Origin: Candidatus Omnitrophota bacterium
Lineage (GTDB): Bacteria > Omnitrophota > Gorgyraeia > JABMQH01
Reading direction: 5' to 3'
Length of the DNA stretch: 58,309 nt
Assembly (NCBI GenBank): GCA_013203355.1
Contig: JABMQH010000075.1
Location: 1-58,309 of the forward strand
The notes under the pieces were generated by a model. That model had not been told where the DNA came from and made no database searches. It was given only the letters and a program-made list of their open reading frames with translations. Each line of letters starts with the position of its first letter. Position 1 is the first letter of the stretch. Of the stretch, positions 19,614-58,309 are shown piece by piece. A program made the translations under genes and the position numbers.

Positions 19614-22600
19614 TTATATATTTTCTGCAGTTTGTTCTGGTCCCTTCCCTAAGTCGTCTAGTCCTGCCGCACCAGCTGCAGGCTGCTTAGGCTTTCCATT
19701 TGGCACCCATTGATATTCTACCTTGCCCGCACCTTCGGGTGAGAGGCGAAGCCATCGACCTTTTGTAAACTCATCATTTGCCATCTCCCAACGGCCTTCA
19801 CTCAGGTGTGTTGTAAATCTTGCGATACCTCTTTCTAGCTGCTCTTGCGTATAGCCGGGGTTCTGATCAGGATCAGCTAACATTGCTTGACATATTTCAA
19901 GCGCTTCTTTTATCTTGGCCACCATAAGTTTATCTACCAGATGCCTTTGGTCTTCAGGCATCGCTGCCTTTGTCTTACTAATTAAATGTCTGAAAATTAC
20001 TCCAGGCATATCTAGAACTCCGCCTATTTCATCATTCTCTAAGCCGGGGCCGTTCTTAAAAGTAAACGCAAGAACGTTTTCGTCTTTTCTTATTCCATTT
20101 TTTACATACGCGCAGAAACCTACCCTGGCTCCAGCCGCTATATCCGTATCCGAAGCTATAAAGGCACTTTCTATTACAACCCTTTCTTTCGCTCCTGTTA
20201 TGCCTATAGTTGAACCACCTCCTATATTGGCAACATTGGCAACATATACAGTCTCCCCATCTATTTCCGCTTTAATCTCAGGGAAATCCGTATTACGAAT
20301 TGCTGTAGCCATATGGTGGTCTGCTAGACCTGTTGCGCCATTTGTTAACTCGGTCCCAACGGTTGAATCAATAAATGGGCTTCCTATAGTACCGGCACTT
20401 CTACCTCCTACAACTACAGCGCGTGGTTCAAACTTTGTTCCATCGGCTGCAGTGTTTCTTTCTATCAAATTATGAGAAGACGTTACATCATCTCCAAGCT
20501 GAGAATTACGTATACGTGAATTTGAGTGCTTATTGTTTTCGCCTATTGTTACATTTTCTCCTACACAATTCTCAATCTCTGAATTTGCTCCCACTGTAAC
20601 ATTGTCGAGATGGGAACCCCATACGGTTACTCCTGGTCCAATTACTGTGTTGCCTGTGAGCCTGGTCCCTGGAAGAAGTCTCGCAGTTGGATGCACCTCC
20701 ACCGCTGCATCGACATACGTTATTTGTGTTCTTGATCTCAGGGCTTGTGTTTTTACTATATCCGTCCGAATAGGTTCTCTTGCAACACCTTGACGCCTAA
20801 CATCCAATATCTGTGGCATCATTGTCTGTGCGTACTGGTGATGATTTGCGATAAGTCCATCCGCGATCAATTTGGTTAATAGCGGCTTACATCTGTCACT
20901 TGTATACATCGCAGTCGCAGCATCGTAATTCCACTCTGAAATAAACTTACCATTGCGAAATTCCCACGCTCTACTGTCCAAATGTGTTTTATATAAAGCT
21001 AATGCCTGCTGTAGTGTATCCCTTCTCGCTTCGAGTTTCGCCTTTGCTTCGGAACCGTCGCCCTCTGCAGCAATCAATGGCTCAAGCGCAGATAAGGCCT
21101 TTGTGCAAATAACCATACCTGTCCTAAGCATCTTCTCTGGAAAATCATCCAACACCTTAAGTACCTCATCTGGATCCGTATCATCCAGTTTTGCTTTCGC
21201 GTGAACTTTGGTGACCATATTTTCCATCATTCTTATAATCGCATGCGGACTATACGTAAAGGTCCATCCGGGAGTGGTATCTCTCGGACTAAGCCCATGT
21301 CTGGCCTCACCCGGTAGTATCTGGCCCCAGACCTCCCTTCCCTGATGTGCGGCTACACTAAATGGATTAATAACGGTTAGGTTCGGCTCCATGGCATGTT
21401 CCCAAGTTGTCAAATCCAGTTGTCTAGATAAAGCTATAATTCTTGTGTCCGGGGCAATTATACAGGATGGTTTAACAAAAACCGTACCGTGGTCGCTTAT
21501 GTCTCCTACTCCTGTAATGCGAGTGACGTAGTCACCCTGCGCAACCGCCTTCTCACCCTGATAATCTGAGAAGATAGCATACTCGCCCACAGGACTTACA
21601 TTAGGCAAACCCTCTATAAATTCTGGAACTACATTATCACCTTGTAAATCCAGTGCTAAAACCTTGTTTGTGAATACTCCTGTAACAAAAGCCATTCTCT
21701 TGATCTCTAATCCCCAGCCAAGCCAGGACTCAGCCACCTCTGTGGGGCCTATTATATTCACTAAATCCTCTGCATGAACCAATTCCACCTTGGCTCTTAC
21801 AATATTACATTGTCTGCCTATTTCGCTATGAGATACGTCGCTTTCTTCCACTACTGACCCCTTACCAACTCTGGTATTAATAAGATTGGACTGTCCTGTT
21901 ACTTTAGCTTCTGTTTCTATAACAGTCCTATCGTTAGCAACGCGGTACTCGCTATCCGCGTACCCCCATTTCTTTTTCTTTTCCACCGTCTTTAAAGTGG
22001 AATCCGAAATTATTGCCCTCTTCTCTACGTCAACATCATCCAACTTGCTGCGTTTGATTTGTGCACCCTGCTCAACTATGGAATTGGCGACAACGCTATT
22101 CTCGGAAATCCTTACATCTGAACCTATAACTGTCTTCATGCCTGTTACTATGCTTCCGCTTCCTATAAAAGCAGTCTCATCTATATTTCTAAGATCGACA
22201 TCCTTGGCTATCATTCCTCCTTGCTGTGTTTCATAGTAGTGGCCGTTATCGGTAAGGTTCAATTTAGCCATTCGTTCTGCTCTTTCCGCAGGAGGCATTG
22301 CTACTGCTGCTTCTACCACAGGAGTTCCTGCGGTAAGCCGCGCAAAGGAAAATTCAGAAGACGTTGATCTATTAAGTTCATTCGCAAAGATCGTCGCTAA
22401 TGTCATCTGGCTGAAATTTGTCAGTTCGTTGGGTGAATCGGGTATCGTCAGAATAAGTGCTCCTCGATTTTCAAGGAAGTCCACTGCCGGTTTTGCCTCT
22501 GCCCCATCCTGTACATCCGATTCCTTTACCACCACTATCAGGCTGGCGGCCCTCGTATCGTTTCTGTTTGCATCAACAACAGCTGCGGTCAGCGTCCTGG

Positions 22601-25600
22601 AATCGGTACCTAATACAACAACCAAGGCATCTTGGTATTTCGAAGCCGGGGCCTCTGTCGGATGAGGAGTAAACTCTGAATTCCTACCCGCTTTATTAAT
22701 CTGATCCAAAAATTTCTTTACCGTGTTCCACACCGCTGCCAGAGGTCCATGCACAGATTCATCTACAGGAAGGGCTTCTGCTTCAACACCGGCTATACGA
22801 TGCAACATAGACCCCCAGACCAACGCACTTGCATAATCCTGGCCGCCACCAATGATCTGAACCGTCCTATGCTGCATATCAAATTTATTCCTCCTCAAGT
22901 CAACGAGGCGCTGTCGCAAACGTCCAATCTGAGCTTCATTGGTAACAACTTGCCGTGACAACTCTCTAGCAGAGGTTAGGCCTACTTCGTAATCCTTCAT
23001 ATTTAGCGAGCCTTTTTGCCAACCCAGATAAACCCCAAAGCTCATCAACGACATATAGTACATTCCTGTAGTAGATGTTGCGTCCAAGTCATTGGGCAGG
23101 ACAATTGAGCCAAAACTGTTATTTCCATATGCCAGGACGCCTGGCGAGCGCCCATCAGTAATAGCAAATATGGGTGTCCCTTCAGGGACGTTTTCCTCTA
23201 ACACCTGCAGAATAAGCTCTTCGCCAATCGCATCCCCGGGCACTGCTTGTTGATCTGCATTACGGCCTTCAACCGGATCTTCGATATCAGGGATCTCTGC
23301 ATTTCTGCCCCAGGGTCTATTGTTCGACCGCCGCAGGACGACAACCACGGTATTTTCATCAATATCTGATGCAAGATCATAATCGCGTGGATTGTGGACT
23401 ATTACATTTACCCCTGCCAGTGTAGGTTTAACTGCTTCAAACACAAGTCCTTGTGTTTTATTCGCCGTAATCTTATACTCCCTGCCGTCGAAAAATGCTT
23501 TCAGCTGCTGTTGAAATTCCCTAGAAAACTGTCCTTCGTCAACCGTTGCAAATTCTATTAGCTGATCCTCACCCTTAACTTTTTTAACACCATCTTCCCC
23601 AATACCATTAATTTCTATTGGGCCACCTATTGGCTGGCCATGTTTAGTTTTTTGAATATAAAAATTGCGCGTACGAAAATTAAACGTAACGGTATAATAT
23701 TCTCCATTGACGGCAACATTTCCTACTGTCTGAGTCTCCATCGGTGTTCCGGTAGCCGGATCCTTAGGCCGATCAAAGAGACCTGCTCCTGTTATTCGAA
23801 AATCTGCGTGTCCCAAGGGGCCTGCAGCCATAATAGCTGCTGTATTACCATCGACCACTTCTTCAGTGATCACAACTACTTTTTTTATGTTCTCTGGACC
23901 AAATTGCTTAATGGCACTATCGTTGAATGTGCTGTAGCCAGCCATGCCGCCGACAGTGTTAGGAAGACACCTTCGTGTAACATTATCATATACTAATGGA
24001 AGTCTGGCTATGGCCTTATCGATTGATTTTGCCAATGTGGCCCAGTAAGCAGCAATCGCCTGCTGGTGCTGCACAACAAGCTCTTCAATAGCAACACCTT
24101 GAAGTTCGCTCATATATTGAAACATTTCATAGAGAACGCCGGGGACTTTAATACCTTTTACCGTGACAGATTTGGCGAGATTACGTGAACTATCAATTTC
24201 TGTATCCGATAAACCTGCTTGCCTAGCAAACGCTACCGCAGACTTAAAAAAGAACGTTGCATCGACAACAGCCTGGAGGGCGGGATGAACTCTATCAACC
24301 CCAAAAATCTGGACGCGGTCGCGACCATCGCCGCCTTCTGCTACAGGATCTATACCCGCTTCTTGCTTTAAAGTTTGTAGTTGTTCCCAAAATTCATTTT
24401 TCTCATCGCCTTCAAAATCATCCTCGTTAAAAGTTTGCACGATAAAATCAAGGCCAAGCTCTTTGCATCTTCTTATAAGCGCTAGTGCCTCATCAAACCG
24501 TGTAGGGTCGGTAACTTGAATAACGATCGGCCATCTCAGTTTATTTTTAGCAATAAACTCTAGAAGATTCCATGCAGTATCCTCGCCATAATCATAAGCC
24601 TTACCGAGAATCCAGCGTGTCTCCTCCCATTTTAATTCACCTTCCTCTATAATAGGATTATTGTGCTTACTGCCGAATACCAGAGCACCGCTCCCATTCC
24701 GATAGCGTTTGCCTTCGGCCATAATCCAACTATTCGGGTCCTCTGGATCTAATTGCGGATCTCTTACTTGTGCTGTTAGTATTTCCGGCATTTGCTGTTG
24801 TTGTTGCACAATTGTCATGCGCTCTGCCTGCACCTGCTGTCTTTGTTCTTCTTGGAGCGCGCCATCGCGCATTTGGCTAAGCTGAACACCGAGGATACCA
24901 AGATCAAATAGGATGCCCAAGAATCCTTTCGTGGTAAAGACGGCTCTCTCTTCTCCGGTCTTTACGTGAATTGTACCTGCCGAGTCAGCGGTGAGCGTTC
25001 CAATATCCGACTTAGGTTTTCCAGTAAGAGAAGCGGTGCATACCCCGTGACTGTCCTTAGCCTGCGTCAAGGCATCGAGCGTCAATGCCGTGGAACCGGA
25101 CCAGCTAATACCGACAACAAAATCGTGTTTTTCATCATAATGCTGGTTAGTAGAGACGAGATGACCCGGACCTACGGGAATAATTTCAACGCCGGGTAAA
25201 AGGGTTTTGAAAAGTCGCTGAACACATTTTGCATCTCTTTCAGAGCTTCCGATACCAGTAATAAACATTCGTTCAAGCCCCTCAAGATTCTCACCAAATC
25301 GTGCCTTTAACTCATCAATATCAATACCATATCGCTTGAAAACTCCCTTAACCTTTTCCATTGACATATCAACGGTCCCATCGGGCTGAATATAATTGGC
25401 CACACTCCTTAAAACAATCCATGGGATTTCATTGATGTGTTTCTCGGCATAGGTCCTAAATTTACCCTTATCAGCTATATCAATAGGGATTAAATCTTCC
25501 TCATCTTTTATTTCATCTGTTGTGGTTGGATCGATAGGGGTACCCAAGAACTTAGTATACTCAAGATTAACTTCCCAGTCATCAGTTGCTTCATTGAGCC

Positions 25601-28600
25601 TTTTTGATATTGAAACGACCTTTTGTTTGCCTTTAAGGGTTACCACGCGGGCGCTATATTTGTTTCTAATCACGTCCTTCTTGGTTTCCACTTCTTTGTC
25701 GATTTCTCGAACCCTTATGTTAAAAGCCTCGATTGCCTGGGCTACTTGCGGCTCATAGGAAGCTCCTAATTCCGCTTGCTTTCCAGCGAGCACTTCAAGT
25801 GCTGCATCCCTCGCTGCTCTAGCTTCGTCCACCGCCGCCATACCGTCTTCATCTATCTGATTAAGATCTCTTACATCGGCATCTATTTGTTGAGTGTCCC
25901 ATAACCGCAAGGCAGAACTGGGATCAGAGGTAACCTGGTATTTAGCGTCGACTACTTTCCCCTTTACAACTTCAGTTCTAATGACTACATAAAGAGGCCT
26001 TTCATGGCTTACGATAATGTGTTTATCAGGCATGTGGAGAGAGCGCACATCTGCAGCTATTTCAGATATTTCAGATTCCGGACCAAACACCGTAAGGGCC
26101 ACGCGCAAGGCTATTTCGTCAGGCGACATGAATCTAGTTTTTTTCGATGTCTTGACAATTTCGTTCCACAATGCTGCTAATGTCATCTCCTCCCCTGTCG
26201 CTATTTGTACGTTCCCTTCCAAGAAATTATGCGGGGAGTCTGTATCTGTATACTCTTGGGTTTCGTCACTCCTTCTGGATTCTTCACCACTTATAGCCAT
26301 AGAATCTAGGGCCGCTGCATCGCGAACATACTCCCAGAATACAATAAGCGCTTTGGTGTCGGTAAGAATCCTTTCTCCGTCTTCTGTCATAAAGTCATAA
26401 CCGCGCGCTTCAAGAAACTCTACCATGGCAGCAACGATATTCGGATTTAAGTCACCATTGTGGGCCATGATGCGTGTCGCTCTGCCTCTTTCCTCGGCCG
26501 GCAGAGCCTTGGCTCTTTTTAAACATTCCTGTAAACGTTCTCGCGAGCTCAAAGGTTGTCCACCATCTCCGTTGTGTGTAGGTAAATCTTTAACTATTGA
26601 AGCGATAGCGCTGGCCCTAAGCCCTGACACTCTACCAGTGTCCGTATGCGGTTGCCCATCTTTCTTCTCGTTACTTCCAGTGGTGGCCCATCGATCGTGT
26701 CCTCCTATGTAATCTATATTACTCATGTACCCCAAAGTAATGCTATCAAGGGTGCCGAGTTCGATCCCGTATTTCCTAATAACCGCAATTTTTGCATTAC
26801 CTGGATTTGCCGGAACAACAGATTCCCTCTGGAACCATATCGTCAGCGCCTCAGAAGCCCTGCCAACCATATTAAGCCGTGCCTCTTCGCGCCAGTCAGT
26901 AAACCAATCTTTTGTTCTCCAATCTTTTACGCCCTTGGTTCTCAACAGGGTTCGGTAGTTTTTCTCTACTTCTCCTCGATCTTCTGTCCGCACGGTAAAA
27001 GTGCCTATTAACGATGACTGCAACCTGAAGAGGTGCCGAACAGGATCCAGACTAAATATAGCAGGAACCCTGACAAAACGACCATTGAGAAACTGCTTTA
27101 TGGCATCCCAGCGGACTTGATCGCCTGCGGGAACCTCTTCTCCCCTGATTACCCTATCAATCACCCGCTCGTAGGTCATAACAAGCTCTGCTATCTTTGC
27201 TTCGATGTGTTCTGGATGTTGTCCCATCGCTTGCTCAGCAGCAGTAATTGCTTCTTCTAATTCAAATTTAATAAAATATTTAATATACTCGATATCCAGT
27301 TGATGTTTGTCTTTAAGTCTCCTTACCAAAGCGGGGATATTATTGCGGATTTTATATTCTCTACCACCAAAAAAATCAACTGCTAATCCGACGGGAGAAA
27401 ATCCCATTTGTCCAACCCCAATTGCTTTATTCTTTACGACATGGCCAGCGGCATCAAGCTCTCGAGTATACATCTCAGGTGCGCTGAAATCTGAATGTGC
27501 AGTAACGGCTATGTTTTGGTGGGTTCGCAATGTTTGACGTGCAGCAGTGACCCGCCTATTTATTTCCTGGCGCTCTTTCCGGTTCAGATTTCTCCATTTT
27601 TCATGAAGTGCTGCCAGGTCTTGATCTGTAAGCGGTTTGTGGTCATACAATTTAAGTAATGCTATTTCTAATTGAGGATCTTCACAGTCCGATACAACAG
27701 CTTCACGATTTTCATATAAATAATGCATAGCTCTTTCTTCAAGTCCCTGGCCTCTCATATATATAGCCCTGGCCATTTCTTCAGAGCCACCCATCACCTT
27801 ATTTACCCGGGTGCCAAACTCATCGTTGGTACTAATACCTACATCATCCGATCCCCTATACTCCATCTGCCTCATTGATCCCAGATGCTTACCAAATCCT
27901 GCTCCGATAGTTGTAATAATGCCGCAGGCACCTCTTATCCGTTTCAAATCGGCCCCTTCTAAAAGCCGAAATCCTGCATCACGAGCTTGCATAACCGGCT
28001 GAAGGAGCTTAAGTTCATCACCTAACTCACCATTAACCAGAATATTTCCTGTCCATCTTTGTATAAAATCCCCTATTGGTTCTGTTTGCTGAATCCCATT
28101 ATCTCTATAAGTTATTTCACTTTCACTTATGCTTTCAACTTCGACATAGTGATTTCCTTCTGGATCAGAAGCATTCCTTTTTACATGAGCTATAAATCTC
28201 TGCTGCCCGGTAGCTAGGTGTCTTAAAAGCTCAAAGCCGTTAGCAGTGGGTGCCATTCCGACACCTATTAACTCGCCTAATTCAGCTAATGCAAAGGCCG
28301 TATGATATAACCTGCCCTCTGCATCAATGTGGGCAACTTTGCCTTCCGACTCTGACATATCTATAGCTGTCAAAAACAATGCTGATATATCATTAGAGAC
28401 ATGCGAAGGCGAGGAGTATCGGCCTGTAAAAAGCGGGCTGGCATGTTGGGGATTATGAAGTGCATCGTGTAGGGCTTGTGGGCCGCAGGCCTCTGCAAGC
28501 CGCCTGTTAAGCCTATCCCATTCTTTTCTTGCAGTAGCCTGGAGTGCGGTATTTCCTGGATTGAGTGCTGCTACAATTTCTAAAAGCCAGTTATCAGGGC

Positions 28601-37792: not shown

Positions 37793-37830
37793 TTTGGTCT
37801 CGCTCCATTAAAGACCCCAATTACATCTAA

Positions 37831-37858
37831 ATCCCGTTAGATAAGTTTCTAACGGGAT
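37831..37858 (-). other. perfect 11-bp stem-loop between the 262-aa and 311-aa genes
   Basis: ATCCCGTTAGA-taagtt-TCTAACGGGAT. Only TT follows on the minus strand, so it is a weak terminator at best. It may be an intra-operon processing or stability element. Confidence 0.4.
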
Positions 37859-37906
37859 AAACATAGCAATCATTCTATTATCGCACACAATAATGTGTAA
37901 CGGGGT

Positions 37907-38692: not shown

Positions 38693-38708
38693 GGAACCAA
38701 CCTCCGTT

Positions 38709-39317: not shown

Positions 39318-39320
39318 CGC

Positions 39321-45900: not shown

Positions 45901-48153
45901 GACTACAAGTTCTCCTCTGGCATTTCTAATATCTGTTATGATAACCGGGCCTGCTAATCTCGCGAAAACCCTATCTACTACCTCAGCGGCTCTTAATTCT
46001 ACCTCTTGCCTGCCTTTTATCCTCTGGCCCTTTTTTATCCTGACGGGTTCTCCATCTTTTGAAGCCTTTATAACGACAACTCCCCCATTAAAAAATTCAA
46101 CGCCGTCTTCTATTGTAACCGGGCCGTTCCCTTCTATTATAACTGTGGTATCGTCCCCGATTTTTACATTCCTGCCTATGTTTATTTCAAATCCATTCCC
46201 AAGATAACTGCCGCCAAGATACAGTCCCGCATTCCTGCCAAACCTAAGGGTAGGATCTATTTTTGCCCTGGCAAGCGGGCTGATTTCTACAACAGTGCCT
46301 TCTCCTATATTTTCGCCTGGGATCCCAAATTCCTGCTGCAGCCTTGCCATATGCTTAGATGCGTAATGGTCTCTGCTTTCAACAAATTTTCTCGCGTCCT
46401 TCGTAGGTAACGCATCCCCTTCATCCACCAATGCCACAGAAGTTGAGCCTAAAATTTCCGGCAGCCTTTGGATAGGCAGTTCGAGATTATCGGTTTGAAC
46501 TTTTGTGCCGTCTTTTTTATTTCTGCTCTTTTTCGACTGGACGAAGGGCTTCAGTTTCCTTGTCTCTATAACGGCCTTGAGGTTTTCCATGCTTAAATTA
46601 TAAGCGCCGGTGTTGGCTGGAATAACAAGCTCCGGGTTGGTAGCCTGCGCTTGACTTGAGGCCAATAAGCCATTAATCTCCTCCTGAAGATGTTGAATTG
46701 CCCCTGCCTTCAGTTCTTCAGATTCTGCATTTATTGCTTCAAGCCCTCCCATTGTTTCCACCATTTCGCTAAGCCTGTCTTGCAAAACGCCTTTACCTAC
46801 GCCCCATCTTGTACGATACACAAGGTCCTGAAGTCCATTATTCCTTTCAAAATACTCCACTATGGCTGCTGAGTCGGGATCCGTTGAAAAGAACGTACCG
46901 AGGGTAAATTCATCTTCAACATAAATCCCGGTAATATTGCCAGCATCATCTTTTTTGGTTTTTACGGATACTGTCCGGGGATAATCATAACCAATGGCGG
47001 ATAGTTCGCTGCCTGTAGCTTCTCTTGTCCCAACCAAACCTGATATTATTTCTGGCTCTAACGCCATATCCGTCTGTAAAAAGTTTGCATCTTCGACTTC
47101 GGGGTAATTCGCATCCAGCCATTCTAACGGTGTTTCCTCTGCTACCAGCGCCTCTTGGCCATTTTGCACAAGGAGCATGCCTTTATTACCTAATGCCATA
47201 ACAGTACCACCGCCGCCATCAGGCGCTTCTATGAACGTCCCATCAGGTTCCGACTCTATCGGACCCCAGCTCATGACAGCGCCGTCAGCATCATAGGTTT
47301 TATACACAGGGACAGCACTTTGGTCTTTTATAATAACCGTCTTCAGGCCAAAATAATTGTTTTTTCTAAGCGCTTCCAATATGGGCCTTCGTGTATCCGG
47401 GCCGACTATAACAACCACTGGGGAATCATCAGTATCTTGGGCGATTCTCCTCAATGATTCAAGAATAACCGTTATGGGGCTTTTGTGCATTATCTTCGAA
47501 TAAGGCACTGTCGGCTTTGAAATGCTTTTGAGCTCTGCTTTTTTTAAATCACCCGCGCCGATTTGCTGCCGCTGGCCTTCTGACATAGTATATAATTCCT
47601 GAAGTCGCGTACCGGCGCCTCCTGCCATAAGGACATTTATTACTTTCGGCATTCTTCTCATACCAATTGAAGAAGCATCCGAGGCACGTCTTATATTTTC
47701 GGTAGGGAATAAATTATGCGTAACTACTTCATAACCTTCCGGCCCGATAGAAACAGCCATGGGGATGTCGGAATAGTCTTGGAAGTTTATATTCGGAGGG
47801 GAGCGTGCGGAGTCATTTGCAATTATGTACTCTTTGACCGCCTTCATGTCCTTTAAAATAAACATCAATCTTTCAGCAACTAAACCAAATAATTTTTTAC
47901 TGGCTATGGTGGGGCTTTCGGCAATTTGAGCTTTTACATTATCCAGCTGCCTGGAATAGTCCCCTGCAAAAGAATTAAGCTGAGCGAGATCTTCTTTGGC
48001 CTTGGCAATTTTTGCATCTAACGTGCTTCGCTCAAGTAAAGGTAACTGCCTCAGGCAGGATTCGGGGGCAGGCCAGGTTATGGTGGGGGTTATAAATAGG
48101 ATTGATATAACTAACGCAATAATTTTGGAGGCAAGAACATTCGGCCTCATCAT
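42967..48153 (-). CDS. 1728-aa signal-anchored fusion of a UAP1/UDPGP-type UDP-sugar pyrophosphorylase (with beta-helix) and an alpha-D-phosphohexomutase
   Basis: N-terminus is MMRPNVLASKIIALVISILFITPTITWPAPESCLRQL. The pyrophosphorylase part has LMAGGAGTRL (M176), SKPTVPY and EAPDGGGGTVMAL. A hexapeptide-like region lies at about aa 611-725. The mutase part has VSGIRQ, YISASHNDEGYNGIK (S1096), HNDTDGDRR, GGEGSNG and FRDSITE. The start lies 1 nt after the stop of the upstream gene. Confidence 0.7.
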   Translation of the reverse strand: MMRPNVLASKIIALVISILFITPTITWPAPESCLRQLPLLERSTLDAKIAKAKEDLAQLNSFAGDYSRQLDNVKAQIAESPTIASKKLFGLVAERLMFILKDMKAVKEYIIANDSARSPPNINFQDYSDIPMAVSIGPEGYEVVTHNLFPTENIRRASDASSIGMRRMPKVINVLMAGGAGTRLQELYTMSEGQRQQIGAGDLKKAELKSISKPTVPYSKIMHKSPITVILESLRRIAQDTDDSPVVVIVGPDTRRPILEALRKNNYFGLKTVIIKDQSAVPVYKTYDADGAVMSWGPIESEPDGTFIEAPDGGGGTVMALGNKGMLLVQNGQEALVAEETPLEWLDANYPEVEDANFLQTDMALEPEIISGLVGTREATGSELSAIGYDYPRTVSVKTKKDDAGNITGIYVEDEFTLGTFFSTDPDSAAIVEYFERNNGLQDLVYRTRWGVGKGVLQDRLSEMVETMGGLEAINAESEELKAGAIQHLQEEINGLLASSQAQATNPELVIPANTGAYNLSMENLKAVIETRKLKPFVQSKKSRNKKDGTKVQTDNLELPIQRLPEILGSTSVALVDEGDALPTKDARKFVESRDHYASKHMARLQQEFGIPGENIGEGTVVEISPLARAKIDPTLRFGRNAGLYLGGSYLGNGFEINIGRNVKIGDDTTVIIEGNGPVTIEDGVEFFNGGVVVIKASKDGEPVRIKKGQRIKGRQEVELRAAEVVDRVFARLAGPVIITDIRNARGELVVPGALTIIDQALEAEGFVRPEGQEHFLSIGHTRYLLSEALKKDKFLVKENRYFTIRDEGKEKRVRRIVHHNRLYQEIIHEGKAELSDEEIDYLFNNLSENTLGRYILIYLRATNGNDNPALWARIVARAGELSLSGEALRTWEDVQNTMINERSRLEIGNPDRAPFGDIDMIDYDKLQDDIWQRTTAGVFSVSGIRQIFDPFFGDRPLPLRFPWRLGIGTEPTMAAKVHAATQAELFAQMLQDPSGFAERIPRLADQTVEQHKQNKSDFVSLLEKTQASKTKRKRKKITVLLDTRSTGPALADVDIRTLIAEGVDVEYAFVASVDEAAVYVKDNPDIDGCIYISASHNDEGYNGIKLLLGDGRVMPEPVAYPYIFVLCGSHPSVRKGRVKGVLENASHTRDVIAKVSSIDPKDVRAVYERIPQVKQQSQQADWNYRDRIIAGVSTNQQAQAPIAEIRDMISRLKLAVISDPNGGAREDMGYLDALGIKTYRLNPRPRYDMDHELCPSTAAVAETTEALESIRDIAVRQGYTVIGSLHNDTDGDRRNYRPIDLKGEFSLRDDMVQICFALDVISYALSEYDFEKNQPKRILGVSCNGPTGVLLEELAEVLGFVVIRTQTGEAYVADGMERLSNMTWAELKEAAESGEEEIIIPDSVRQQFDASHDGEKIKVIVGGEGSNGSDFTPDLLVRDPIHTIKSLINFLSPATGKQFMRALLRRLGREDEFDESWWDTGEGMATIMHRVISYLPASKTTDFFTVGGEGEMINPPLIVGLIKDTVDDVFESDFRESALSGLAGIWGVSKEDISYEYVNYEERAKPGRGNRREKPPMRRQIGDGGYKIKFYIHRGGKKIPIGWIWFRDSITEIGLTRLGASAVFPSSITGVQPDQQQEIVDKTYGFLKTTLGNVLQRTVAKTSEQILTADLGNLSPALRPYQKVLPAAQKDLRDYMQQKGISSPATPVSSAEMEQAHDAKTAAAAAI

Positions 48154-48154
48154 T

Positions 48155-51100
48155 TTATATACCGGAACTAACGGCTCTTCTTGTCTTTAATCCGTCCTGC
48201 GCAGCTTGAGTTGCCAGCGCACCAGCAACTACCGCTCCGGCTTCTCTGTCGAGTGCGGCGGCTCCTTTTTGTTTTCCTTCTCTTTCAATGACTGCAGGTT
48301 TCTCGAGCCGTGGGTTTGCCGGTACATAATAAAATCTTATCTCGTCGTTAGTGGTCTTCTGGGTCTTTTTGCTATTTTCGTAGGTGTCTTTCTCGCTTAC
48401 CTCTATTATTCTTTCAAATTCTACGGCGCCGGAAATTACTTCGCTGCCTGTAAGTTTTGCATGTCTCTTGCTTCTTGAAACCGAGCGTATGCCAACGCCG
48501 ATAGGAACCATTACGCGTTCTGTCGTTCCCCCAATCTCTACATCTTTAACAACATATAAATAATGCGCAACTAAATATTTTCTATGCTTCGCCCGTTCTA
48601 CCGGGTCGGGGTATTCTTTTGTTATGCGCGCCTCATTCTCAGGGTCAACACCCAATCCCTTCTGCTGCTCATCAACAATGGTCCTGCCCTCTTCATACGC
48701 CACCATAGCAAGGCCTGAGCTGTTTAAAGGAACGGCGCCGGGGTTGGTGACAATCTCATCATAGGTAACCTCTTTTTTGCCGTCTAATTTTCCGCGCCTT
48801 TGCACTAATCGTTCTGCTAAATGCCATTTATTAGTCCTTTTATCTCTTACAATGCGCCCGGTCGGCCGAATGGCACCTTTTACGTACTTTCCATTCTCGG
48901 CCCTTCTCGCTTGAGGTGATAGCATGATACGCATTTTTTTGCCTCCTACCTTTGCATCGCCAACAGCCGGCGGTTCGAGCTCCAGCGCCTTTTTAATAGT
49001 GGGGTGCCCTAAGGTAGTTGCCGTATCGGAGACTGTTTTTTTCTCTATAGCCTCTGTTAATTCTGCAACTCTGCGTTTCCAGAAATTCTCCAAAGCCGTA
49101 AGGTACTCTGCCATGGTCTTGCCTCCGGTTACAGGAAGGCGTTCGCTCCGTCCGGCTGCCCGCTGGACAGCCTTTTTGGCAAGCGGACTAATACGTTTTA
49201 GTATTGCTTTGGCAAATTCAAGTTCCCTTGTGGCCTGATTTGTCTGTGCCTTTTCATATTCGCCAGAGGCACTCTTAGTTTCTTCTGCAGTCTTGCTCCC
49301 GGCTACCTTCGCCCTACTATTGATGACCTGGCCGGCGGCCTTTTGAACACCTATATATTGTTCAATTGTTACAGGGGAAAAAATACTGGAGTCCTTCCTT
49401 CTTGAGCGGCTCTTTCTTGCTTTCACTTTCGTCATATCAGCTATCTCGGCAGCAATCCGCTTTTTCTCCAACTCTAATAACCTTGCTTCATTGGCCTCCA
49501 GGGCAGTCAGCAGTTGCTTTACATAACCCGGGCTCGGTTGGCTCTCGAGCCCATCCTGAAAGACAGTAAGGCTTTCAATGTCAAAATATGAGGATATATC
49601 ACGTTTATGCGAACCCACAAACCATTGAGTTACCGCACTACTATATCTCTTTGCTGACCCTCTCAGATAATCTTGCACCTGGCGTTGCCTCTCCCGAAAA
49701 TAGCGTAAGCCTCCTTCTATTTTATCTGCCCGGGTTTGAGTAAATTCTACTTCATATCCTGCCTGTATCCGTCTTCTTTGCAGTGTGGTCATACCAGTCA
49801 GGCGCGTTTGAAGCGGCATTGCGTCAAGCCCTGACTTAAGCGCTCTACCGTCCATACCAATAACGCGTAGCGGGTCAACCATGTTTGGCATGTTCCTCGA
49901 AAGCATGGTATGGTCATGCAATATATCCTCTGATCTACGCTGTGCATCAAGAAGGCTGACCCAGGCATCCTGGACTCTTCTCAATGCCTCTTTGCGCTCA
50001 TCTTCTGCTGCCATTATTTGCCTCTCTAGTGTGTTAGCATCACTCCTCGCGCTACGATTGCTCATCATGACCTGGAAGATCGCAAGGCGCTCTCCGTATT
50101 CCTGGTCCATGAGGAGTCCCTCATTCCGCTCGGATATGGACGGAGAAAGGGCTGATCCGAGGGCTACGCGAATCCTCATTGTCTGTCCACCCACCTCGTG
50201 TCGCTCTAACTCAATGGTGGCAAGCTGTAGCTCGCGCTCTCTCTTTTCTTTCCATTCCGGCAGTTCCCCTCGTATATATCTTCCGCGGTATTTACTCAGG
50301 TAATCTACGCGATGCCTGGCTAAACTAACCCTGGCATCTTGTTCGGCAATAACAGCTTTATTAAGCGCTTGTTGGGCATCAAAGGTATTTTCTTTTGTTG
50401 GGGATGTATCTTCCGCAGATATCTTCCGAAATCGCTGAAGTATGTTTATGGAATGTTGTTGTGTCCGTAGTAATTTGATGTTGGCTTTATAAACCCCGAC
50501 CTCTTTTTCTAGGTTTTGCACCGTTCTTGTGCGCCTACTCCGCCTAAACGCAATTTCCCGTTCGGCCGTCTTCTTCTGGGATTCTAAATGTGCGATCTCG
50601 GCATTCAGGAGTTTCTTCTTCTGTTCTAACTGCTGGTCGATCAAAGGTGCGCAATGCTCACTAAGAACCTTTTTTTGTTGTCCTTTTGACAACGCGGGGC
50701 GCCCTGGTATTAATAAGCATGGCTCATGCGCTGCTGAGAGATTTCGTCCTGCCCCAGGCAGAAATAAAATTCCCTGATCCAATAATTTGTCATTTAGTTC
50801 TCTTTCCTGTTGCGCCATAGCATGGTTGTATGCCGCTATTTGCTCAGCATATTTTAAAGAAGCCTGCGGTTCTACCACCTTGCCATATAGTGGATGTTTT
50901 GGCCCAAACTTAGATTTGAAGGGGTGAGCTTTAATAAAAGAATGGTCTTTAGACGTAAGCTCCTGGACGCTCTTAAGATAATCGCGCGTTGTCTTAGCAA
51001 GGGCTTGCCATACACTGCTCTGTTTTGCTTTATCATTGACGGCGCCAGCTTTGTAATACTGCGATAAAAGCTGATTCATCTTTTCTTTAAAAGCGGTATC

Positions 51101-51478
51101 CATCCGGCGTCTCAGAGAAGCGGATTTAGCGCGGCCTTCGATCATGATCCTCATATAAGAGTTAATGAGGCCTTGGCTTCCAAGAATCTCAAGCTCATCC
51201 TTCGCTTGGACTTTATTGTCTGCGCCTAAGGCGTCTAAAGTAGTACCTGGTGCAACGACACCTGCGGAAGTCAGTATCCCCATCGTTCTCAAAAAACCTC
51301 GACGACTCCTTCCTGCGGCGCTTAAGGCATCTAAATCATCTGCTTCACTCTGCCCGCCTTCAATTATGGCAAGCGGCCTTAGGGAAGATTGCGGCGCAGA
51401 CCAGGCGATATTAGAATACACCAGGAGTATTGAAAGTAGGATCGACCAAATTTTAAACATCTTGTTTCTGGTGTTCAT
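48155..51478 (-). CDS. 1107-aa coiled-coil-rich protein with an N-terminal hydrophobic helix and an internal twin-arginine-like motif; paralog of the core of the >2051-aa protein
   Basis: N-terminus is MNTRNKMFKIWSILLSILLVYSNIAWSAPQSSLRPL, followed by GRSRRGFLRTMGILTSAGVVAP (R59-R60). Long Glu/Arg/Lys/Gln-rich helical stretches follow. The C-terminal ~280 aa are about 65-70 percent identical by eye to the paralog. Confidence 0.7.
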   Translation of the reverse strand: MNTRNKMFKIWSILLSILLVYSNIAWSAPQSSLRPLAIIEGGQSEADDLDALSAAGRSRRGFLRTMGILTSAGVVAPGTTLDALGADNKVQAKDELEILGSQGLINSYMRIMIEGRAKSASLRRRMDTAFKEKMNQLLSQYYKAGAVNDKAKQSSVWQALAKTTRDYLKSVQELTSKDHSFIKAHPFKSKFGPKHPLYGKVVEPQASLKYAEQIAAYNHAMAQQERELNDKLLDQGILFLPGAGRNLSAAHEPCLLIPGRPALSKGQQKKVLSEHCAPLIDQQLEQKKKLLNAEIAHLESQKKTAEREIAFRRSRRTRTVQNLEKEVGVYKANIKLLRTQQHSINILQRFRKISAEDTSPTKENTFDAQQALNKAVIAEQDARVSLARHRVDYLSKYRGRYIRGELPEWKEKRERELQLATIELERHEVGGQTMRIRVALGSALSPSISERNEGLLMDQEYGERLAIFQVMMSNRSARSDANTLERQIMAAEDERKEALRRVQDAWVSLLDAQRRSEDILHDHTMLSRNMPNMVDPLRVIGMDGRALKSGLDAMPLQTRLTGMTTLQRRRIQAGYEVEFTQTRADKIEGGLRYFRERQRQVQDYLRGSAKRYSSAVTQWFVGSHKRDISSYFDIESLTVFQDGLESQPSPGYVKQLLTALEANEARLLELEKKRIAAEIADMTKVKARKSRSRRKDSSIFSPVTIEQYIGVQKAAGQVINSRAKVAGSKTAEETKSASGEYEKAQTNQATRELEFAKAILKRISPLAKKAVQRAAGRSERLPVTGGKTMAEYLTALENFWKRRVAELTEAIEKKTVSDTATTLGHPTIKKALELEPPAVGDAKVGGKKMRIMLSPQARRAENGKYVKGAIRPTGRIVRDKRTNKWHLAERLVQRRGKLDGKKEVTYDEIVTNPGAVPLNSSGLAMVAYEEGRTIVDEQQKGLGVDPENEARITKEYPDPVERAKHRKYLVAHYLYVVKDVEIGGTTERVMVPIGVGIRSVSRSKRHAKLTGSEVISGAVEFERIIEVSEKDTYENSKKTQKTTNDEIRFYYVPANPRLEKPAVIEREGKQKGAAALDREAGAVVAGALATQAAQDGLKTRRAVSSGI

Positions 51479-51536
51479 ATGTCACCTTTTTTAACTTGAT
51501 CCTTCCCTTGAATGCCAGGGACAGGTTCAAACTTGG

Positions 51537-51570
51537 GTTTGGGGACACTTGCGTATTCAAATCCCCAAAC
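51537..51570 (-). other. stem-loop in the spacer between the HD-GYP gene and the 1107-aa gene
   Basis: GTTTGGGGA (51537-51545) pairs with TCCCCAAAC (51562-51570): a 9 bp stem and a 16-nt loop, with no T-tract. Confidence 0.35.
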
Positions 51571-51586
51571 GGTACCAATATTACTA

Positions 51587-52165
51587 TTATATCACTTTTA
51601 AGAGCTCCACGATAAACACTTCAACGATCCTTGGATCAAACTGTTTGGCAGAATATTTACGCAATATTCTTATCGCCTCCTGAATTATCATAGCCTTTCT
51701 GTAAGGCCTCACTGAAACCATCGCCTCATAGGAATCGCAAACCGCTATGATCCGTGCACTGATGGGGATCCTGGATCCCTTCTTTCGTGCATTAGTCGGA
51801 TATCCGTTTCCGTTAAACCAGACGTGGTGATAATAGATTGCCTCGACAACCTCTTTGCTAAATCCTGCCTCTTTCACCAAACGGGCAGAAATTATCGGAT
51901 GCATCTTTATCTTAAGCCATTCAACGCTCGACAATCTTTGCTCTTTCCCCCAGATCCGCATATCTATTCCTATCTTTCCAACATCATGGATTAGGCTGGC
52001 GGCTATAATCATATCTTTTTTCTTGCCTCTGATCTTCAACACCTTACATAATGCCATGGCGTAATTTGCCACATTCTCGGAGTGGCAGGGCGTACAATTA
52101 TTCGTCCTGTCAAGTTTCCTCGCTAATGTCCTGAGGTCCTGTGGGGTGTATATTAGCTTGCCCAT
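51587..52165 (-). CDS. stand-alone HD-GYP domain protein (putative cyclic-dinucleotide phosphodiesterase)
   Basis: 192 aa with LIHDVGKIGI (HD) and YYHHVWFNGNGYP (a variant of the HHExxDGxGYP motif). There is no receiver or sensor domain. The start overlaps the end of the upstream giant ORF by 13 nt. Confidence 0.7.
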   Translation of the reverse strand: MGKLIYTPQDLRTLARKLDRTNNCTPCHSENVANYAMALCKVLKIRGKKKDMIIAASLIHDVGKIGIDMRIWGKEQRLSSVEWLKIKMHPIISARLVKEAGFSKEVVEAIYYHHVWFNGNGYPTNARKKGSRIPISARIIAVCDSYEAMVSVRPYRKAMIIQEAIRILRKYSAKQFDPRIVEVFIVELLKVI

Positions 52166-58100: not shown

Positions 58101-58309
58101 CATCTACTACCCCTGCGTGTGCGTTTACCATCTCTGTTATACTTGTTGCGCCGTCTTTCCTTGGTATGCCCATACCAGAGGTTTCATCTGTCTTCTTCAA
58201 TACGTGGATCTTTACTGTGGTTTCTCCTACCTGTTGGGTGTGCTGTACGGTTGAAGGGGTGCGGGCTATTACTTCATTTATATGTTCCTGTTCAGCTGTT
58301 GATGCGCCG
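52153..58309 (-). CDS. giant protein (>2051 aa), 5' end outside the window: 1107-aa-like core plus a ~790-aa C-terminal extension with a possible kinase-like fold
   Basis: The track begins at a TTG (58200), but the same frame stays open through 58201-58308 (GASTAEQEHINEVIARTPSTVQHTQQVGETTVKIHV). It contains an internal ISRRDFIREAVAAAAGVAIAP motif and is collinear with the 1107-aa protein. Confidence 0.7.
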   Translation of the reverse strand, partial: GASTAEQEHINEVIARTPSTVQHTQQVGETTVKIHVLKKTDETSGMGIPRKDGATSITEMVNAHAGVVDGEVHIYVTEGYFDELTSNENMLDELIDHEYKENIEAAEPERNIPPQLRHRYAAQGSRNFINEGEHISAFHKWYLDQLAQEGTPQALRILESFSREDRTVPAQLRGDARAILEYEAEFLKYAQGKIGVQPPAMPADFRISRRDFIREAVAAAAGVAIAPSVTVRALGAEAPPSAKDELERLGQLGLVNDPMGMLLARQSRAISYKRELDGWFQRRMNLLLPQYYEARNSGDEKTAHVLWQDIAGTTRSYLKRVEEFESKNSAFMKAHLPRVRDLFIRTSGRFGDTSSLLIGFERETRHAYDRAKHERELNEKLLSQGLLFLPEGGRNIHSAQEAFISQPGRPTLTKQEREKLIRETFVPARNALLDYKISVLDSEIAHFESKKKSEEEVIGRFANQTHSMITPIRQRIADYETRIALLEAQRDALKGLRKLNNATTDKERLDAQQDINKAVIAEQRLNIIIIKKEEEELRTYHGPARVEPAKDKEGRLDEFQRIRFARRHSELIEKIMVEISELGGTLAPSLPERNEELDIDHEYGARLLIFHARSNIYRAVQAAGQQAARVDEARGEYQRSLAAVNKAWGGLDYIEFQRDISRLQYGLAQLEIGQAQVMQAYGKSQATGYRSLMGGSNYKLAHQADRARIGHLMQQARMNRAELQAWMHVSRTKRQAREAAEGIEYFKKQAARAQAAIPQTRGTYNGMIARWVVNSHRIIETPYFDVENLIPLQSGRIEYMSPGEVPARLDALADHEEELLELESERITTEMNQTEKDLMYKPAALVPLLKQYIVLMNGARRLIDYRLEAIRATTDQEAEAANDKYKQAQANQAALELQFAKAMSDHLSTLARGAETPIAGRYLVTGTRTRAEYCKALQGFWARRTKQAEQGVEKGLPSSVSSGKGQPAIERALELGKPAVGDAKVKVKDGKDKTMPIMLPSQLRRAANGRYVKGAVRPSGDVVQDPQTKTWHLRERLVQRKGKLDGEEEVNYDEVVGSEGAVAYNGADIVTVAYEEGRTVVNEQPRELGVDPENEARIADQYPDPEERAKHRKYLVAHHLYVGKDVKVSGRTQRMLVPVGVGIRSLSRTERNTKLTAADVIAGRVEFENVIDVTEEDTYEASTKTQETTTEEVRFYLVPSIERLGKPAVIETEKKPKGQAAADRKGETVVAAAAMSAAGMGETIDARIDKLDSNVEFFGSSKRSHHVNFHMIATATALIRDINATFQAGAIDPGAYEAYLGRLRVIGRRDAEFSSQGIINSCIEVKTFDEREAEMVAFLSSDRISDEIRNYIAMARRDDLPTAGDVASVIPTLSRSISAHPEFNVFIDKTSPGFVANFVVSALMEARVLAEKGQFGLVVCIGKVVEGWIADFSRTAEKMTEEETRGRALRDALEQNRHIFESFTQEPDFTKYPHTYKDVYRLDSNELTRLVLTYLGEEAANLDPNNPIGEVIFAGGNDRSTYFVTFNTRDGRSIETVFYGSWPEQRRATSELLMACGIYNTYNIFTLGGVRGAMAPRIAGERLSANELPEDQKISYANQNEVARNFIRNMARLARGREVVFTRVHPPDMLVNRDTGDVTIIDHAHSLCDVDDFEDYPQQVIAEIPPDVPDVLQDQFIDVGELTYLRNYIDGWENPEVRREIIAIFNEEFINADTILKQNIGLLRGRAENSIRQSGVSADEAIARHVTRFESGVSADPHILLISIYDLLERGGLEGLYPSFYRSSGRTREQIASDGEFWAGAKAEIQQQTPQAKPLVGELKPPISATDVIRELPIVELAGRMELSSSFKITQVIPKTRKTSLVIGIPQEKATAGMIQAVQEKLGGMGRRDILVVSVERDMMEKKLSDLGVPYGVILDVDKIEDIDGLLEPFMTELDLQSLFADYPILTDLTRLESVRLDRNTLIKIARDRRLIPLITSLNLEYMFSRTKDTPAGKYPVRKKSTQTRTAFGDTDRFMDKEEFKTSPIHFARIREDFLKYFKKPFRRVFKKWAS
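52451..52474. repeat. second copy of the 23-mer seen at 281-303, including the 15-bp palindrome TCTAACC-T-GGTTAGA
   Basis: CTAACCTGGTTAGATCTG-t-CAGG matches 281-303 (CTAACCTGGTTAGATCTG-g-CAGG): 18 nt exact and 22 of 23 overall, in the same orientation. Here it lies inside coding sequence. Confidence 0.6.

Follow-up and report, generated by a model that had tools for sequence, protein, structure and literature searches.

A GlmS-derived giant protein with a putative in-cis C39 activation site in a putatively Sec-signal-bearing amino-sugar gene cluster of Omnitrophota

The window analyzed here is the entire contig JABMQH010000075.1 (58,309 bp) of a Candidatus Omnitrophica metagenome-assembled genome. 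Its central feature is a protein of 3749 amino acids (aa; NQU73656.1/HQ547_02980) that embeds a module derived from the glucosamine-6-phosphate (GlcN-6-P) synthase GlmS in a signal-bearing polypeptide. As encoded, the nucleophile Cys of the glutaminase is residue 980 and not residue 1 of the chain, and it is directly preceded by a C39-type peptidase domain ending in a double-glycine-type motif. We propose, with about even confidence, a Sec-signal-bearing multi-enzyme amino-sugar cluster in which the 3749-aa protein would be a pro-enzyme activated by its C39 domain, and we lean towards export. The proposal builds on observed module identities, retained motifs, a peptidase fold, a cleavage-type motif, synteny and terminal signatures. 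Omnitrophota are widespread, uncultured and probably host-dependent nanobacteria, and the mix of export signals and cytoplasmic enzymes in their long proteins is a paradox that current preprints leave standing. The locus is a compact and tractable case of it, with proteins of 1–4 thousand amino acids (kaa) vs. 10–150 kaa, and it yields a sharp prediction, namely a cut between Ala979 and Cys980.

Read as a pro-enzyme, the 3749-aa protein (19614–30863, minus strand) would consist of a signal, a domain of ~700 aa, a C39 peptidase, the motif LEGADLKRIRGA followed by C980, the GlmS-type enzyme, a region of ~620 aa and two left-handed beta-helix (LbH) modules. Self-cleavage by the C39 domain after Ala979 would expose an N-terminal Cys and thereby render the glutaminase active. 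The same cut would detach the 2770-aa catalytic body from the signal-bearing 979 N-terminal residues. The features of the chain are as follows:

30780–30863, minus strand: signal peptide or anchor, residues 1–28, as read from the sequence; the N-termini of the relatives P0006 and P0032 are alike.
28677–30779, minus strand: conserved N-terminal domain, residues 29–729, common to P0005, P0006 and P0032.
27927–28676, minus strand: C39-type (double-glycine) cysteine peptidase domain, residues 730–979, with the putative triad C793/H905/D921.
27927–27962, minus strand: double-glycine-type motif LEGADLKRIRGA, residues 968–979, directly before Cys980.
24150–27926, minus strand: GlmS-derived module, residues 980–2238, with a class-II (N-terminal nucleophile, Ntn) glutaminase, two SIS subdomains and an NLAKSVTV tail.
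22284–24143, minus strand: family-conserved region, residues 2241–2860, with 'IIGGGQD' and 'DESVHGPLA' reminiscent of SIS, conserved in the alignment of relatives.
19617–22166, minus strand: two LbH modules with helical spacers, residues ~2900–3749, ending '...TAENI' (LbH_EIF2B 1.4e-7, below cutoff).

The preliminary description of the window had recognized a GlmS/GFAT-type module in this protein, and profile searches bear this out. A hidden Markov model (HMM) built from 29 canonical GlmS glutaminase domains matches the window protein with E 3.5e-10 and 20 related giants with E 7e-23 to 2e-3, while reversed-sequence controls are all at or above 0.58. Position 2 (Cys) of the HMM falls on C980, and the match resumes ~335 residues later, so that the glutaminase carries a large insertion. 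The SIS domain scores 24.9 bits in Pfam, just below the cutoff of 25, and reaches 1e-7 against the PDB; the isomerase domain aligns with solved GlmS structures, the NLAKSVTV tail included. Global alignment of the giants to full-length GlmS with hmmalign lost the glutaminase half through insertions, and hence local HMM matches and motif positions were used. Residue numbers follow an E. coli GlmS sequence with self-consistent length and catalytic positions. The motifs lie at 980 (CGII), 1391 (RWAT), 1468 (HNG), 1920 (SWSGST) and 2231 (KSVTV).

In the glutaminase, Cys1 (C980), Arg26 (R1003), Arg73/Trp74/Thr76 (R1391/W1392/T1394), Asn98/Gly99 (N1469/G1470) and Asp123 (D1502) of GlmS are retained. 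The two-SIS isomerase keeps Ser347/Ser349/Thr352 (S1920/S1922/T1925), Lys485/Glu488 (K2078/E2081) and Lys603 (K2231). Despite these likenesses, the giant's module differs from GlmS in its size (~1260 vs. ~608 aa), the ~335-aa insertion in the glutaminase, the position of the Cys at 980 and the replacement of His504 by Ala. Moreover, the NLAKSVTV tail is internal and not C-terminal, and the module is embedded in a signal-bearing polyprotein.

Class-II (Ntn) amidotransferases use the free amino group of an N-terminal Cys. Given this requirement, the internal Cys980 should be inactive as encoded, and we infer that the C39 domain cuts after Ala979. In the C39 alignment, C793 is invariant, H905 is near-invariant (at least 90% of members) and D921 lies 16 residues past the His. 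The best PDB match of the C39-region profile is the C39 domain of PCAT1 (E 0.012), and Pfam Peptidase_C39 matches 4 of 14 members, with 1.3e-5 as the best value. An AlphaFold2 (AF2) model of the domain, based on 14 diverse sequences, has a predicted local distance difference test score (pLDDT) of 84.1 and a predicted template-modeling score (pTM) of 0.85. Its top Foldseek matches are substrate-bound PCAT1, ComA-PEP and LahT150 with leader peptide, with probability 1.00 and target TM-scores of 0.57–0.63. The twelve residues before the Cys fit the pattern L-[ST]-x-x-[ED]-L-x-x-[IV]-x-G-[GASC], followed by C, in all 18 of 18 family members. Within the 3749 residues, LEGADLKRIRGA before Cys is the only strict double-glycine match, with 0.23 expected by chance.

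The closest structural parallel is provided by the C39 peptidases of the PCAT/AMS type (PCAT1, ComA, LahT). The giant shares with them the papain-like fold and, for its putative triad, the Cys/His/Asp spacing with 16 residues between His and Asp; in its putative substrate motif, Gly-[Gly/Ala/Ser] occupies -2/-1, and the residues at -4, -7 and -12 are hydrophobic. In contrast to these systems, the giant's peptidase comes without an ABC transporter, and peptidase and site lie on one chain, ~45 residues apart. No ABC exporter domain fused to C39 was found in the Pfam scan, and the only ABC components in the window are those of an importer dependent on a solute-binding protein (SBP). Furthermore, the giant would release a 2770-aa enzyme body and not a small peptide, and the N-terminus newly made by the cut would be a catalytic one. 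In PurF and glutamate synthase, Cys1 is likewise uncovered by the removal of a short propeptide, in a process that does not involve a C39 domain. A literature search found nothing relevant on an amidotransferase activated by C39 or at a double-glycine site.

Relatives of the giant were collected by an exhaustive HMMER search with residues 960–2159, which yielded 167 cluster representatives. About 20 of these are giants of 2,200–4,900 aa with the whole stretched GlmS-type module, and ~45 are signal-less proteins of 1,450–1,880 aa starting 'MCGIV', one of them named 'glucosamine 6-phosphate synthetase-like'. The signal-less proteins are the nearest unfused relatives of the module, whereas ordinary GlmS of ~610 aa appears in the search only at E 1e-7 to 1e-4. 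Since the signal-less relatives of ~1500 aa start with 'MCGIV', the fused forms had to solve the problem of the N-terminal Cys. The glutaminase motifs are present in most related giants, and Ser303, Ser347, Ser349, Thr352, Lys485, Glu488 and Lys603 of the isomerase are retained in nearly all of them, while the position of His504 varies. The signal-less family itself (P0024–P0066), with its Ntn glutaminase, central SIS and long unannotated regions, is apparently uncharacterized.

For the N-terminal domain (residues 29–729) no Pfam family was found even at E <= 1, so that a TraB/TIKI-like fold, suspected for the first ~700 aa, finds no Pfam support. The region 2241–2860 was considered as a second GlmS-isomerase-like pair supplying the missing His; this was dropped, as a six-sequence profile found no PDB relative (best E 0.18). 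The LbH modules match the LbH of the ADP-Glc pyrophosphorylase family in the PDB (0.005) and, weakly, the stand-alone DUF4954 protein of the window (E 9e-4).

A second signal-bearing giant of 1728 aa (HQ547_03030; 42967–48153, minus strand) combines a nucleotidyltransferase-like and a mutase module:

48028–48153, minus strand: signal or anchor, residues 1–42, with a 'W-P-A-P-E-S-C-L-R-Q' motif kept in P0002, P0003 and neighboring unrelated proteins.
46270–47661, minus strand: module like UAP1/AGX-type UDP-N-acetylhexosamine (UDP-HexNAc) pyrophosphorylases, residues ~165–628, with GGAGTRL at 178, PDGGGG at 311 and EISPL at 623.
46024–46269, minus strand: LbH of gamma-carbonic-anhydrase (gamma-CA) type, residues ~629–710 (PDB profile 9f5x 4.8e-4, 3vnp 0.009).
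43204–45102, minus strand: alpha-D-phosphohexomutase module, residues ~1018–1650, with all four signature loops.

The mutase loops are SASHN at 1094, DTDGDR at 1289, GGEGSNG at 1423 and, as the equivalent of the phosphate loop, RDSITE at 1608. PGM_PMM_I (PF02878) is matched with 5.5e-15 and 55.7 bits (cutoff 22.5), PDB entries of GlmM/PGM with 3e-5, and by BLASTP the module is collinear with the window's GlmM through the first three loops. The phosphohexomutase named in the preliminary description is thus well founded. For the UAP1/UDPGP enzyme proposed alongside it, the motifs are in place, and a profile of three sequences matches UAP1s in three collinear motif blocks (2yqc, C. albicans UAP1, 6.7e-4; 8yp3, 2.8e-3; 9g53; 4bma), but the relationship is remote and no Pfam family matches. 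All top non-LbH matches of the profile are eukaryote-type UDP-GlcNAc pyrophosphorylases. A scan of GTDB species genomes with the alignment of the 1728-aa family found no relative. The relative P0003 (locus L002, 730–4431) has an additional PIG-L (LmbE-type N-deacetylase) domain, which separates its N-terminal LRP motif from its UAP1-like module, and the mutase part is encoded on its own by a downstream gene with a signal motif of its own.

Both giants belong to a co-directional cluster of ~39 kb, in which thirteen minus-strand genes lie between the contig end and base 19614. Transcription begins with the protein of at least 2015 aa and continues with an HD-GYP protein, the 1107-aa and the 1728-aa protein; six exported proteins of CBM30/CBM9/PDZ type, NagB, a DUF4954/LbH protein and the 3749-aa protein follow. 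Intergenic gaps are mostly -20 to +186 nt, and the sole larger one (913 nt), between the DUF4954 and 3749-aa genes, is occupied by a HAD phosphatase gene on the opposite strand. No structured RNA was found in the window at Rfam thresholds. The neighbors of the giants are:

31149–31814, plus strand: HAD-family phosphatase, 221 aa (HAD 4e-10, Put_Phosphatase 4e-8), position and strand kept in locus L003.
31777–33690, minus strand: stand-alone DUF4954/LbH protein, 637 aa, without signal peptide (PF16314 4.8e-60), adjoining the giant in L003 too.
33804–34574, minus strand: NagB glucosamine-6-phosphate deaminase, 256 aa, without signal peptide (TIGR00502 311.8 bits vs. a cutoff of 236.9), syntenic in L003.
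34761–42900, minus strand: six exported or anchored proteins, from Pfam and N-terminal hydrophobic segments; L003 shows synteny for the stretch CBM30 – 308 aa – PDZ.
51587–52165, minus strand: HD-GYP domain protein, 192 aa (HD_5 6.9e-31), with 'HDVGK' and 'NGNGYP'.

NagB, above its equivalog cutoff, and the HD-GYP protein had already been named as neighbors. The six-gene block had been described as an operon of CBM- and GH-like exoproteins. It encodes a 792-aa protein (CBM30, a weak GH18-like match and CBM9), CBM30 proteins of 402, 202 and 273 aa, a 311-aa protein and a 699-aa protein with TPR and PDZ domains. The GH18 match is weak and sub-threshold in Pfam. No Pfam family matches the 311-aa protein, and a literature search found no functional work on DUF4954. 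The 699- and 311-aa proteins (34761–37792, minus strand) have a common C-terminal motif, 'PSFAGFAIHYYKSY' and 'PAFAGIAMHHYLSY'; the two genes share 4 nt, each protein has a counterpart in L003, and the common C-terminal domain is without family assignment.

A cassette for amino-sugar uptake and catabolism (7135–16922, mixed strands) lies outside the part of the window covered by the preliminary description:

7135–8490, minus strand: GlmM (curated archaeal-type GlmM model, 544 bits vs. a cutoff of 439).
8487–10910, minus strand: GH94 disaccharide phosphorylase.
11021–12223, minus strand: NagC-like ROK protein.
12391–13434, minus strand: 347-aa protein.
13519–16922, plus strand: SBP-permease fusion and permease.

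The association of the giant with amino-sugar genes recurs in two further loci, L003 and L004, that were assembled independently. In L003, from a different metagenome and with proteins ~43–50% identical, the order is CBM30 – 308 aa – PDZ – NagB – DUF4954 – HAD (opposite strand) – giant, and a second giant with a GHMP-kinase domain comes next. In L004, from a distant high-GC lineage (~33% identity), SBP-permease, permease, NagA-like amidohydrolase, a 349-aa protein, ROK and GH94 lie directly upstream of the giant P0019, and this cassette equals that of the window minus GlmM. The giant of L005 precedes a 1544-aa NTP_transferase+APH protein, after which comes a GHMP-kinase giant. APH/NTP_transferase and GHMP-kinase domain types serve amino-sugar salvage by anomeric kinases and uridylyltransferases (NahK, AmgK/MurU, GALK2/AGX1). 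Hence, the link of the giant modules to amino-sugar uptake, phosphorolysis, deamination and nucleotide activation is a conserved feature.

We infer from the sequences that the modules catalyze hexosamine-pathway reactions. Together with GlmM, NagB, ROK, GH94, the importer and the CBM30/GH18-like proteins, they would interconvert fructose 6-phosphate (Fru-6-P), GlcN-6-P, HexNAc-1-P and UDP-HexNAc. The set resembles the GlmS-GlmM-GlmU, UAP1 and AmgK-MurU or NahK routes in having an amidotransferase/isomerase, a phosphohexomutase and a uridylyltransferase beside LbH. It differs from the bacterial GlmU route, as the uridylyltransferase module is of the eukaryote UAP1 type and the modules are divergent and stand alongside a canonical GlmM.

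Two cassette members merit separate mention. The 347-aa protein between ROK and the ABC importer has a 349-aa counterpart in the distant lineage (L004, 2897–3946), and as neither matches a Pfam or NCBIfam family, it is an unannotated member of the cassette. At 13519–15765 (plus strand), an extracellular SBP and an ABC permease are fused into one protein of 748 aa, with an equal fusion of 746 aa in L004. The left part of the window also encodes an SSS transporter and HAD phosphatases.

The proteins of 462, 1728 and 1107 aa share a motif after the hydrophobic helix, W-[SPA]-[AH]-P-x-S-x(1,3)-L-R, of which the 3749-aa protein has a weaker version. The additional members are:

304–1692, minus strand: 462-aa protein of the signature class, with N-terminal '...IVWAHPYSLYSLR' and C-terminal '...TDSQI'.
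48155–51478, minus strand: 1107-aa protein with signal and 'W-S-A-P-Q-S-S-L-R-P' motif, a charged helical body and the end '...SSGI'.

All 4 of these 4 proteins end in Ile, vs. 1 of 24 other open reading frames (ORFs) of the window (Fisher p = 2.4e-4), and the terminal signatures hold for 8 of 8 proteins when the window is pooled with L001 and L002. The pair of N- and C-terminal features is also found in the homologs P0002 and P0003 and their unrelated neighbors. In high-GC relatives, the N-terminal version reads 'TQA-x-P-x-W-ALRP...GLEE', and neighboring giants have a common C-terminal tail 'PRDYSPESAA...V'. None of the curated models searched recognizes the W-x-A-P...LRP motif, and the 462-aa protein matches no Pfam or NCBIfam family. 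On sequence grounds, the 3749-, 1728-, 1107- and 462-aa products belong to a lineage-wide, putatively Sec-signal-bearing class marked by these paired signatures, the motif after the helix and an aliphatic C-terminal end. Both have the appearance of signals that would direct sorting or processing along a route of their own. As an idea only, the exported PDZ/TPR protein of the cluster could be a reader of the C-termini.

A further motif, G-[LM]-E-[ED], was counted 36 times across 11 high-GC members of the family, where 3.0 would be expected. It always lies within Pro/Ala/Gln-rich linkers, usually with one copy ~10–20 residues past the N-terminal LRP motif and further ones where modules meet. Instances are found in P0010–P0021 and P0028, and as 'AAGAAGLDDLGKG' near the C-terminus of the 3749-aa protein (19614–19700). 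It may serve as another site for processing or docking.

Giant ORFs might also result from errors in assembly or gene calling, with ordinary separate cytoplasmic enzymes joined on chimeric contigs or in fused calls, as the source is a metagenome-assembled genome and L002 carries the 1728-aa architecture in two genes. We regard this as exceedingly improbable and reject it, since the fused architectures recur on independent contigs (ENA, Logan, JGI, NCBI) from at least five datasets. A mis-assembled locus, which the preliminary description had named as a possible refutation, is thereby excluded. The frames of the giants are also uninterrupted, and base composition is uniform along the cluster. 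In L002, an N-terminal signature is found on both halves, and the first half also carries the C-terminal -I, while the second runs off the contig; this points to modular evolution and not to error.

Several observations speak against our proposal. The C39 copy of the window reaches only E 0.013, below the Pfam cutoff, and the oxyanion-hole Gln was not identified in its domain. The 1728- and 1107-aa proteins are without a peptidase domain, and no double-glycine site was found in the 1728-, 1107- and 2015-aa proteins; the processing model is thus limited to the 3749-aa protein. The equivalent of His504 in the isomerase is A2097, at a position variable across the family, and because of this replacement the GlcN-6-P synthase activity may be altered or lost. 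The LbH modules best match the non-catalytic LbH of NDP-sugar pyrophosphorylases and eIF2B epsilon or the gamma-CA type, and so lend no support to the acetylation step. The UAP1-type module as a single sequence reaches only E 0.8 against the PDB, with the profile value of 6.7e-4 being a remote match, and the AF2 model of the UAP-like and LbH region, from an alignment of three sequences, is unusable at a pLDDT of 45.7. Mutase domains II–IV were not detected by Pfam, and the specificity of the GH94 protein is not separable from its scores (cellobiose phosphorylase 473 bits, chitobiose phosphorylase 457 bits). UTP, acetyl-CoA and Fru-6-P are not expected outside the cytoplasm, and the co-conserved partners NagB, DUF4954, HAD, GH94, ROK and NagA-like carry no signal peptides, which argues for cytoplasmic chemistry.

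The complete UDP-HexNAc pathway of the preliminary description is overstated, given the non-catalytic matches of the LbH modules and the replaced His504. Its reading of the LbH modules as candidate N-acetyltransferases finds support for the fold but not for the reaction, and every catalytic motif that it had quoted as intact is in place, while the His504 equivalent is substituted. The recovery of folds by HMM and structure searches, which it had proposed as a check, succeeded for SIS, PGM and the GlmS glutaminase, but Pfam misses GATase and UDPGP and the UAP-like model fails.

Such divergence might also indicate that the modules are no longer enzymes and serve as sugar or sugar-phosphate binders, or as a scaffold, in an exported surface or adhesion apparatus beside the CBM30/CBM9 proteins. 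Pfam misses not only GATase and UDPGP but also mutase domains II–IV, large insertions break the glutaminase, the isomerase has lost its counterpart of His504, the LbH modules are akin to non-catalytic ones, the neighbors are glycan binders, and the substrates are absent from an exported location. On the other hand, the nucleophile Cys is always kept across relatives that are ~30–50% identical, and the oxyanion and specificity motifs of the glutaminase, the Ser/Thr/Lys/Glu/Lys set of the isomerase and the four mutase loops are widely kept. A peptidase and a motif placed to free the Ntn Cys would be without purpose for a binder. The kept catalytic motifs and the placement of peptidase and cleavage site thus weaken the sugar-binder explanation, which the preliminary description had listed, and we rate it as improbable.

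Regarding localization, the 3749-, 1728- and 1107-aa proteins begin with two to four basic residues and one hydrophobic stretch, and no further transmembrane (TM)-like segment was found in the three giants except for a buried SIS helix. This agrees with the preliminary description, in which a single hydrophobic helix with the N-terminus inside had been read at these positions. In the 3749-aa protein, the n-region contains R4, K5 and R10, the h-region has 12 residues, and the c-region is 'TNPTQA' followed by S. All three giants have n- and h-regions that suit a Sec signal. A clean A-x-A-type site is present solely in the 3749-aa protein (TQA before S), while the others carry W-[SP]-A-P, where cleavage is uncertain. 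With their N-in polarity, the N-termini resemble Sec signals or signal anchors.

By standard topology rules, we lean slightly and tentatively towards the giants leaving the cytoplasm, because of the robust N-in polarity, the lack of a second TM segment, the short h-regions, the conserved motifs that resemble sorting signals and what has been reported on the biology of giants in Omnitrophota. Exported enzymes would act in a reducing, metabolite-rich milieu, e.g., a host cell that has been breached or invaded. Reducing conditions are required by both catalytic cysteines; this fits a cytoplasm, be it the cell's own or a host's, or an anoxic habitat.

Alternatively, the enzymes might work as a metabolon on the cytoplasmic side, if the helix only tethers the giants or if the C39 cut frees the body before translocation. 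Placed beside the ABC importer, they would supply the peptidoglycan or surface glycans of the cell itself with UDP-HexNAc, made from GlcN-6-P/Fru-6-P and from the HexNAc-1-P that GH94 releases. In favor of this, the substrates are all cytoplasmic, signal peptides are missing from the co-conserved partners, and phosphorolysis by GH94 would give a sugar-1-phosphate, the direct substrate of a UAP-type enzyme. PCAT C39 domains work on the cytoplasmic side, and the cut would separate the body from the signal part; the nearest unfused relatives, starting MCGIV, are without signal. In addition, many giants with only TM segments have been read as cytoplasm-facing (bioRxiv 10.64898/2026.06.07.730766). 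Against this stand the positive-inside rule, which predicts N-in/C-out with no second TM segment to return the chain, and the short, signal-peptide-like h-regions. The 1728-aa protein has neither peptidase domain nor double-glycine site, the post-signal motif and C-terminal tail resemble sorting determinants, and a C39 domain targeted co-translationally to Sec would leave the cytoplasm before it could fold there. We consider a cytoplasmic metabolon possible but rather less probable than the C39-activated pro-enzyme with a lean towards export.

An extension of the export reading, which we regard as unlikely, is that an epibiotic or predatory nanobacterium exports the giants as polyprotein effectors that act on metabolism. 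They would be targeted by their terminal signatures into the host cytoplasm or into leaking contents, where C39 would arm the GlmS-type enzyme by a cut at the double-glycine site. Jointly with the UAP1-, mutase- and LbH-type modules, this enzyme would drain or rewire the hexosamine/UDP-HexNAc pool of the host, and the parasite would take up the products through the importer and catabolic cassette. MARTX and large clostridial glucosylating toxins are exported polyproteins in which an internal cysteine protease frees enzymes, some of which need cytosolic nucleotide sugars. The likeness is by analogy only and concerns the autoprocessing logic; the giant's protease is C39 and not a C80 cysteine protease domain, its signal is N-terminal and of Sec type, and there is no type I secretion signal. 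No RTX repeats or translocation domain were found in the giants by Pfam. If true, the effector reading would apply a MARTX-like logic to metabolism and not to toxicity.

The preliminary description knew of no described system with such an architecture. However, long multi-enzyme proteins of Omnitrophota with a signal or TM helix have already been described in preprints (bioRxiv 10.1101/2023.11.21.568195; bioRxiv 10.64898/2026.06.07.730766; touched on in PMC10066038). They include PGM/PMM, GT1, ROK and C39 domains, and the topology paradox is discussed (bioRxiv 10.1101/2023.11.21.568195; bioRxiv 10.64898/2026.06.07.730766). West-Roberts et al. (2023) observed that giants of Omnitrophota carry C39 domains close to their N-termini, and guessed that these domains might cleave the giants (bioRxiv 10.1101/2023.11.21.568195). 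The window proteins share with them the phylum, the combination of a signal or TM helix with cytoplasm-type enzymes and the tiling of several enzyme families per chain, but differ in length, with 1.1–3.7 kaa vs. catalogs of mostly at least 10 kaa. A keyword search of the text of those papers found no mention of a GlmS/SIS or UAP1-type module, a double-glycine site at an Ntn Cys or paired terminal signatures. As housekeeping glmS is present in 174 of 176 and glmU in 176 of 176 genomes of the phylum (bioRxiv 10.64898/2026.06.07.730766), the window modules are extra divergent paralogs and not the primary pathway.

New here are the recognition of the GlmS-derived and UAP1-type modules, the C39 and double-glycine site placed for the Ntn Cys, the paired signatures and the coupling to the cassette. 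Of these, the preliminary description did not cover the C39/double-glycine site, the terminal signatures or the cassette with GlmM, GH94, ROK and the ABC importer. If true, the proposal would add a previously undescribed mode of activation to the Ntn amidotransferases, double-glycine peptidases would gain a new role in cis, and the enzyme modules of Omnitrophota giants would be real catalysts. The whereabouts of the processed body would tell if the sugar-nucleotide chemistry of Omnitrophota extends beyond their own cytoplasm, and the paired signatures may define a new sorting class.

The 1107-aa protein has a paralog at the contig end:

52153–58309, minus strand: paralog of at least 2015 aa, with the N-terminus cut off by the contig end.

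The two are 40% identical over 1053 aa, in line with the two paralogous giants of the preliminary description, and the frame of the 2015-aa protein is open to base 58309, so that its N-terminus is truncated by the contig end. For the family of the 1107-, 2015- and 990-aa proteins, no PDB sequence relative and no Pfam or NCBIfam family was found. Past the first signal-like helix, the 1107-aa protein contains an internal twin-arginine-like (Tat-like) signal, 'SRRGFLRTMGILTSAGVVAPGTTLDALGA' (residues ~58–85, window 51220–51310), which is kept in the 2015-aa paralog (residue ~172) and in a 990-aa homolog in L001. Its 'SRRGFLR' and h-region at residues 58–85 are not N-terminal as in a Tat signal, and TAT_signal_seq (TIGR01409) scores 14.4 bits, below the cutoff of 16.7. 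If it spans the membrane as a second segment, the chain could adopt a hairpin topology. Lastly, a pyruvoyl-dependent arginine decarboxylase gene and an arginase-family (agmatinase-like) gene, overlapping by 74 nt as called, lie at 3684–5172 (minus strand) and form a polyamine-synthesis pair unrelated to the giants.

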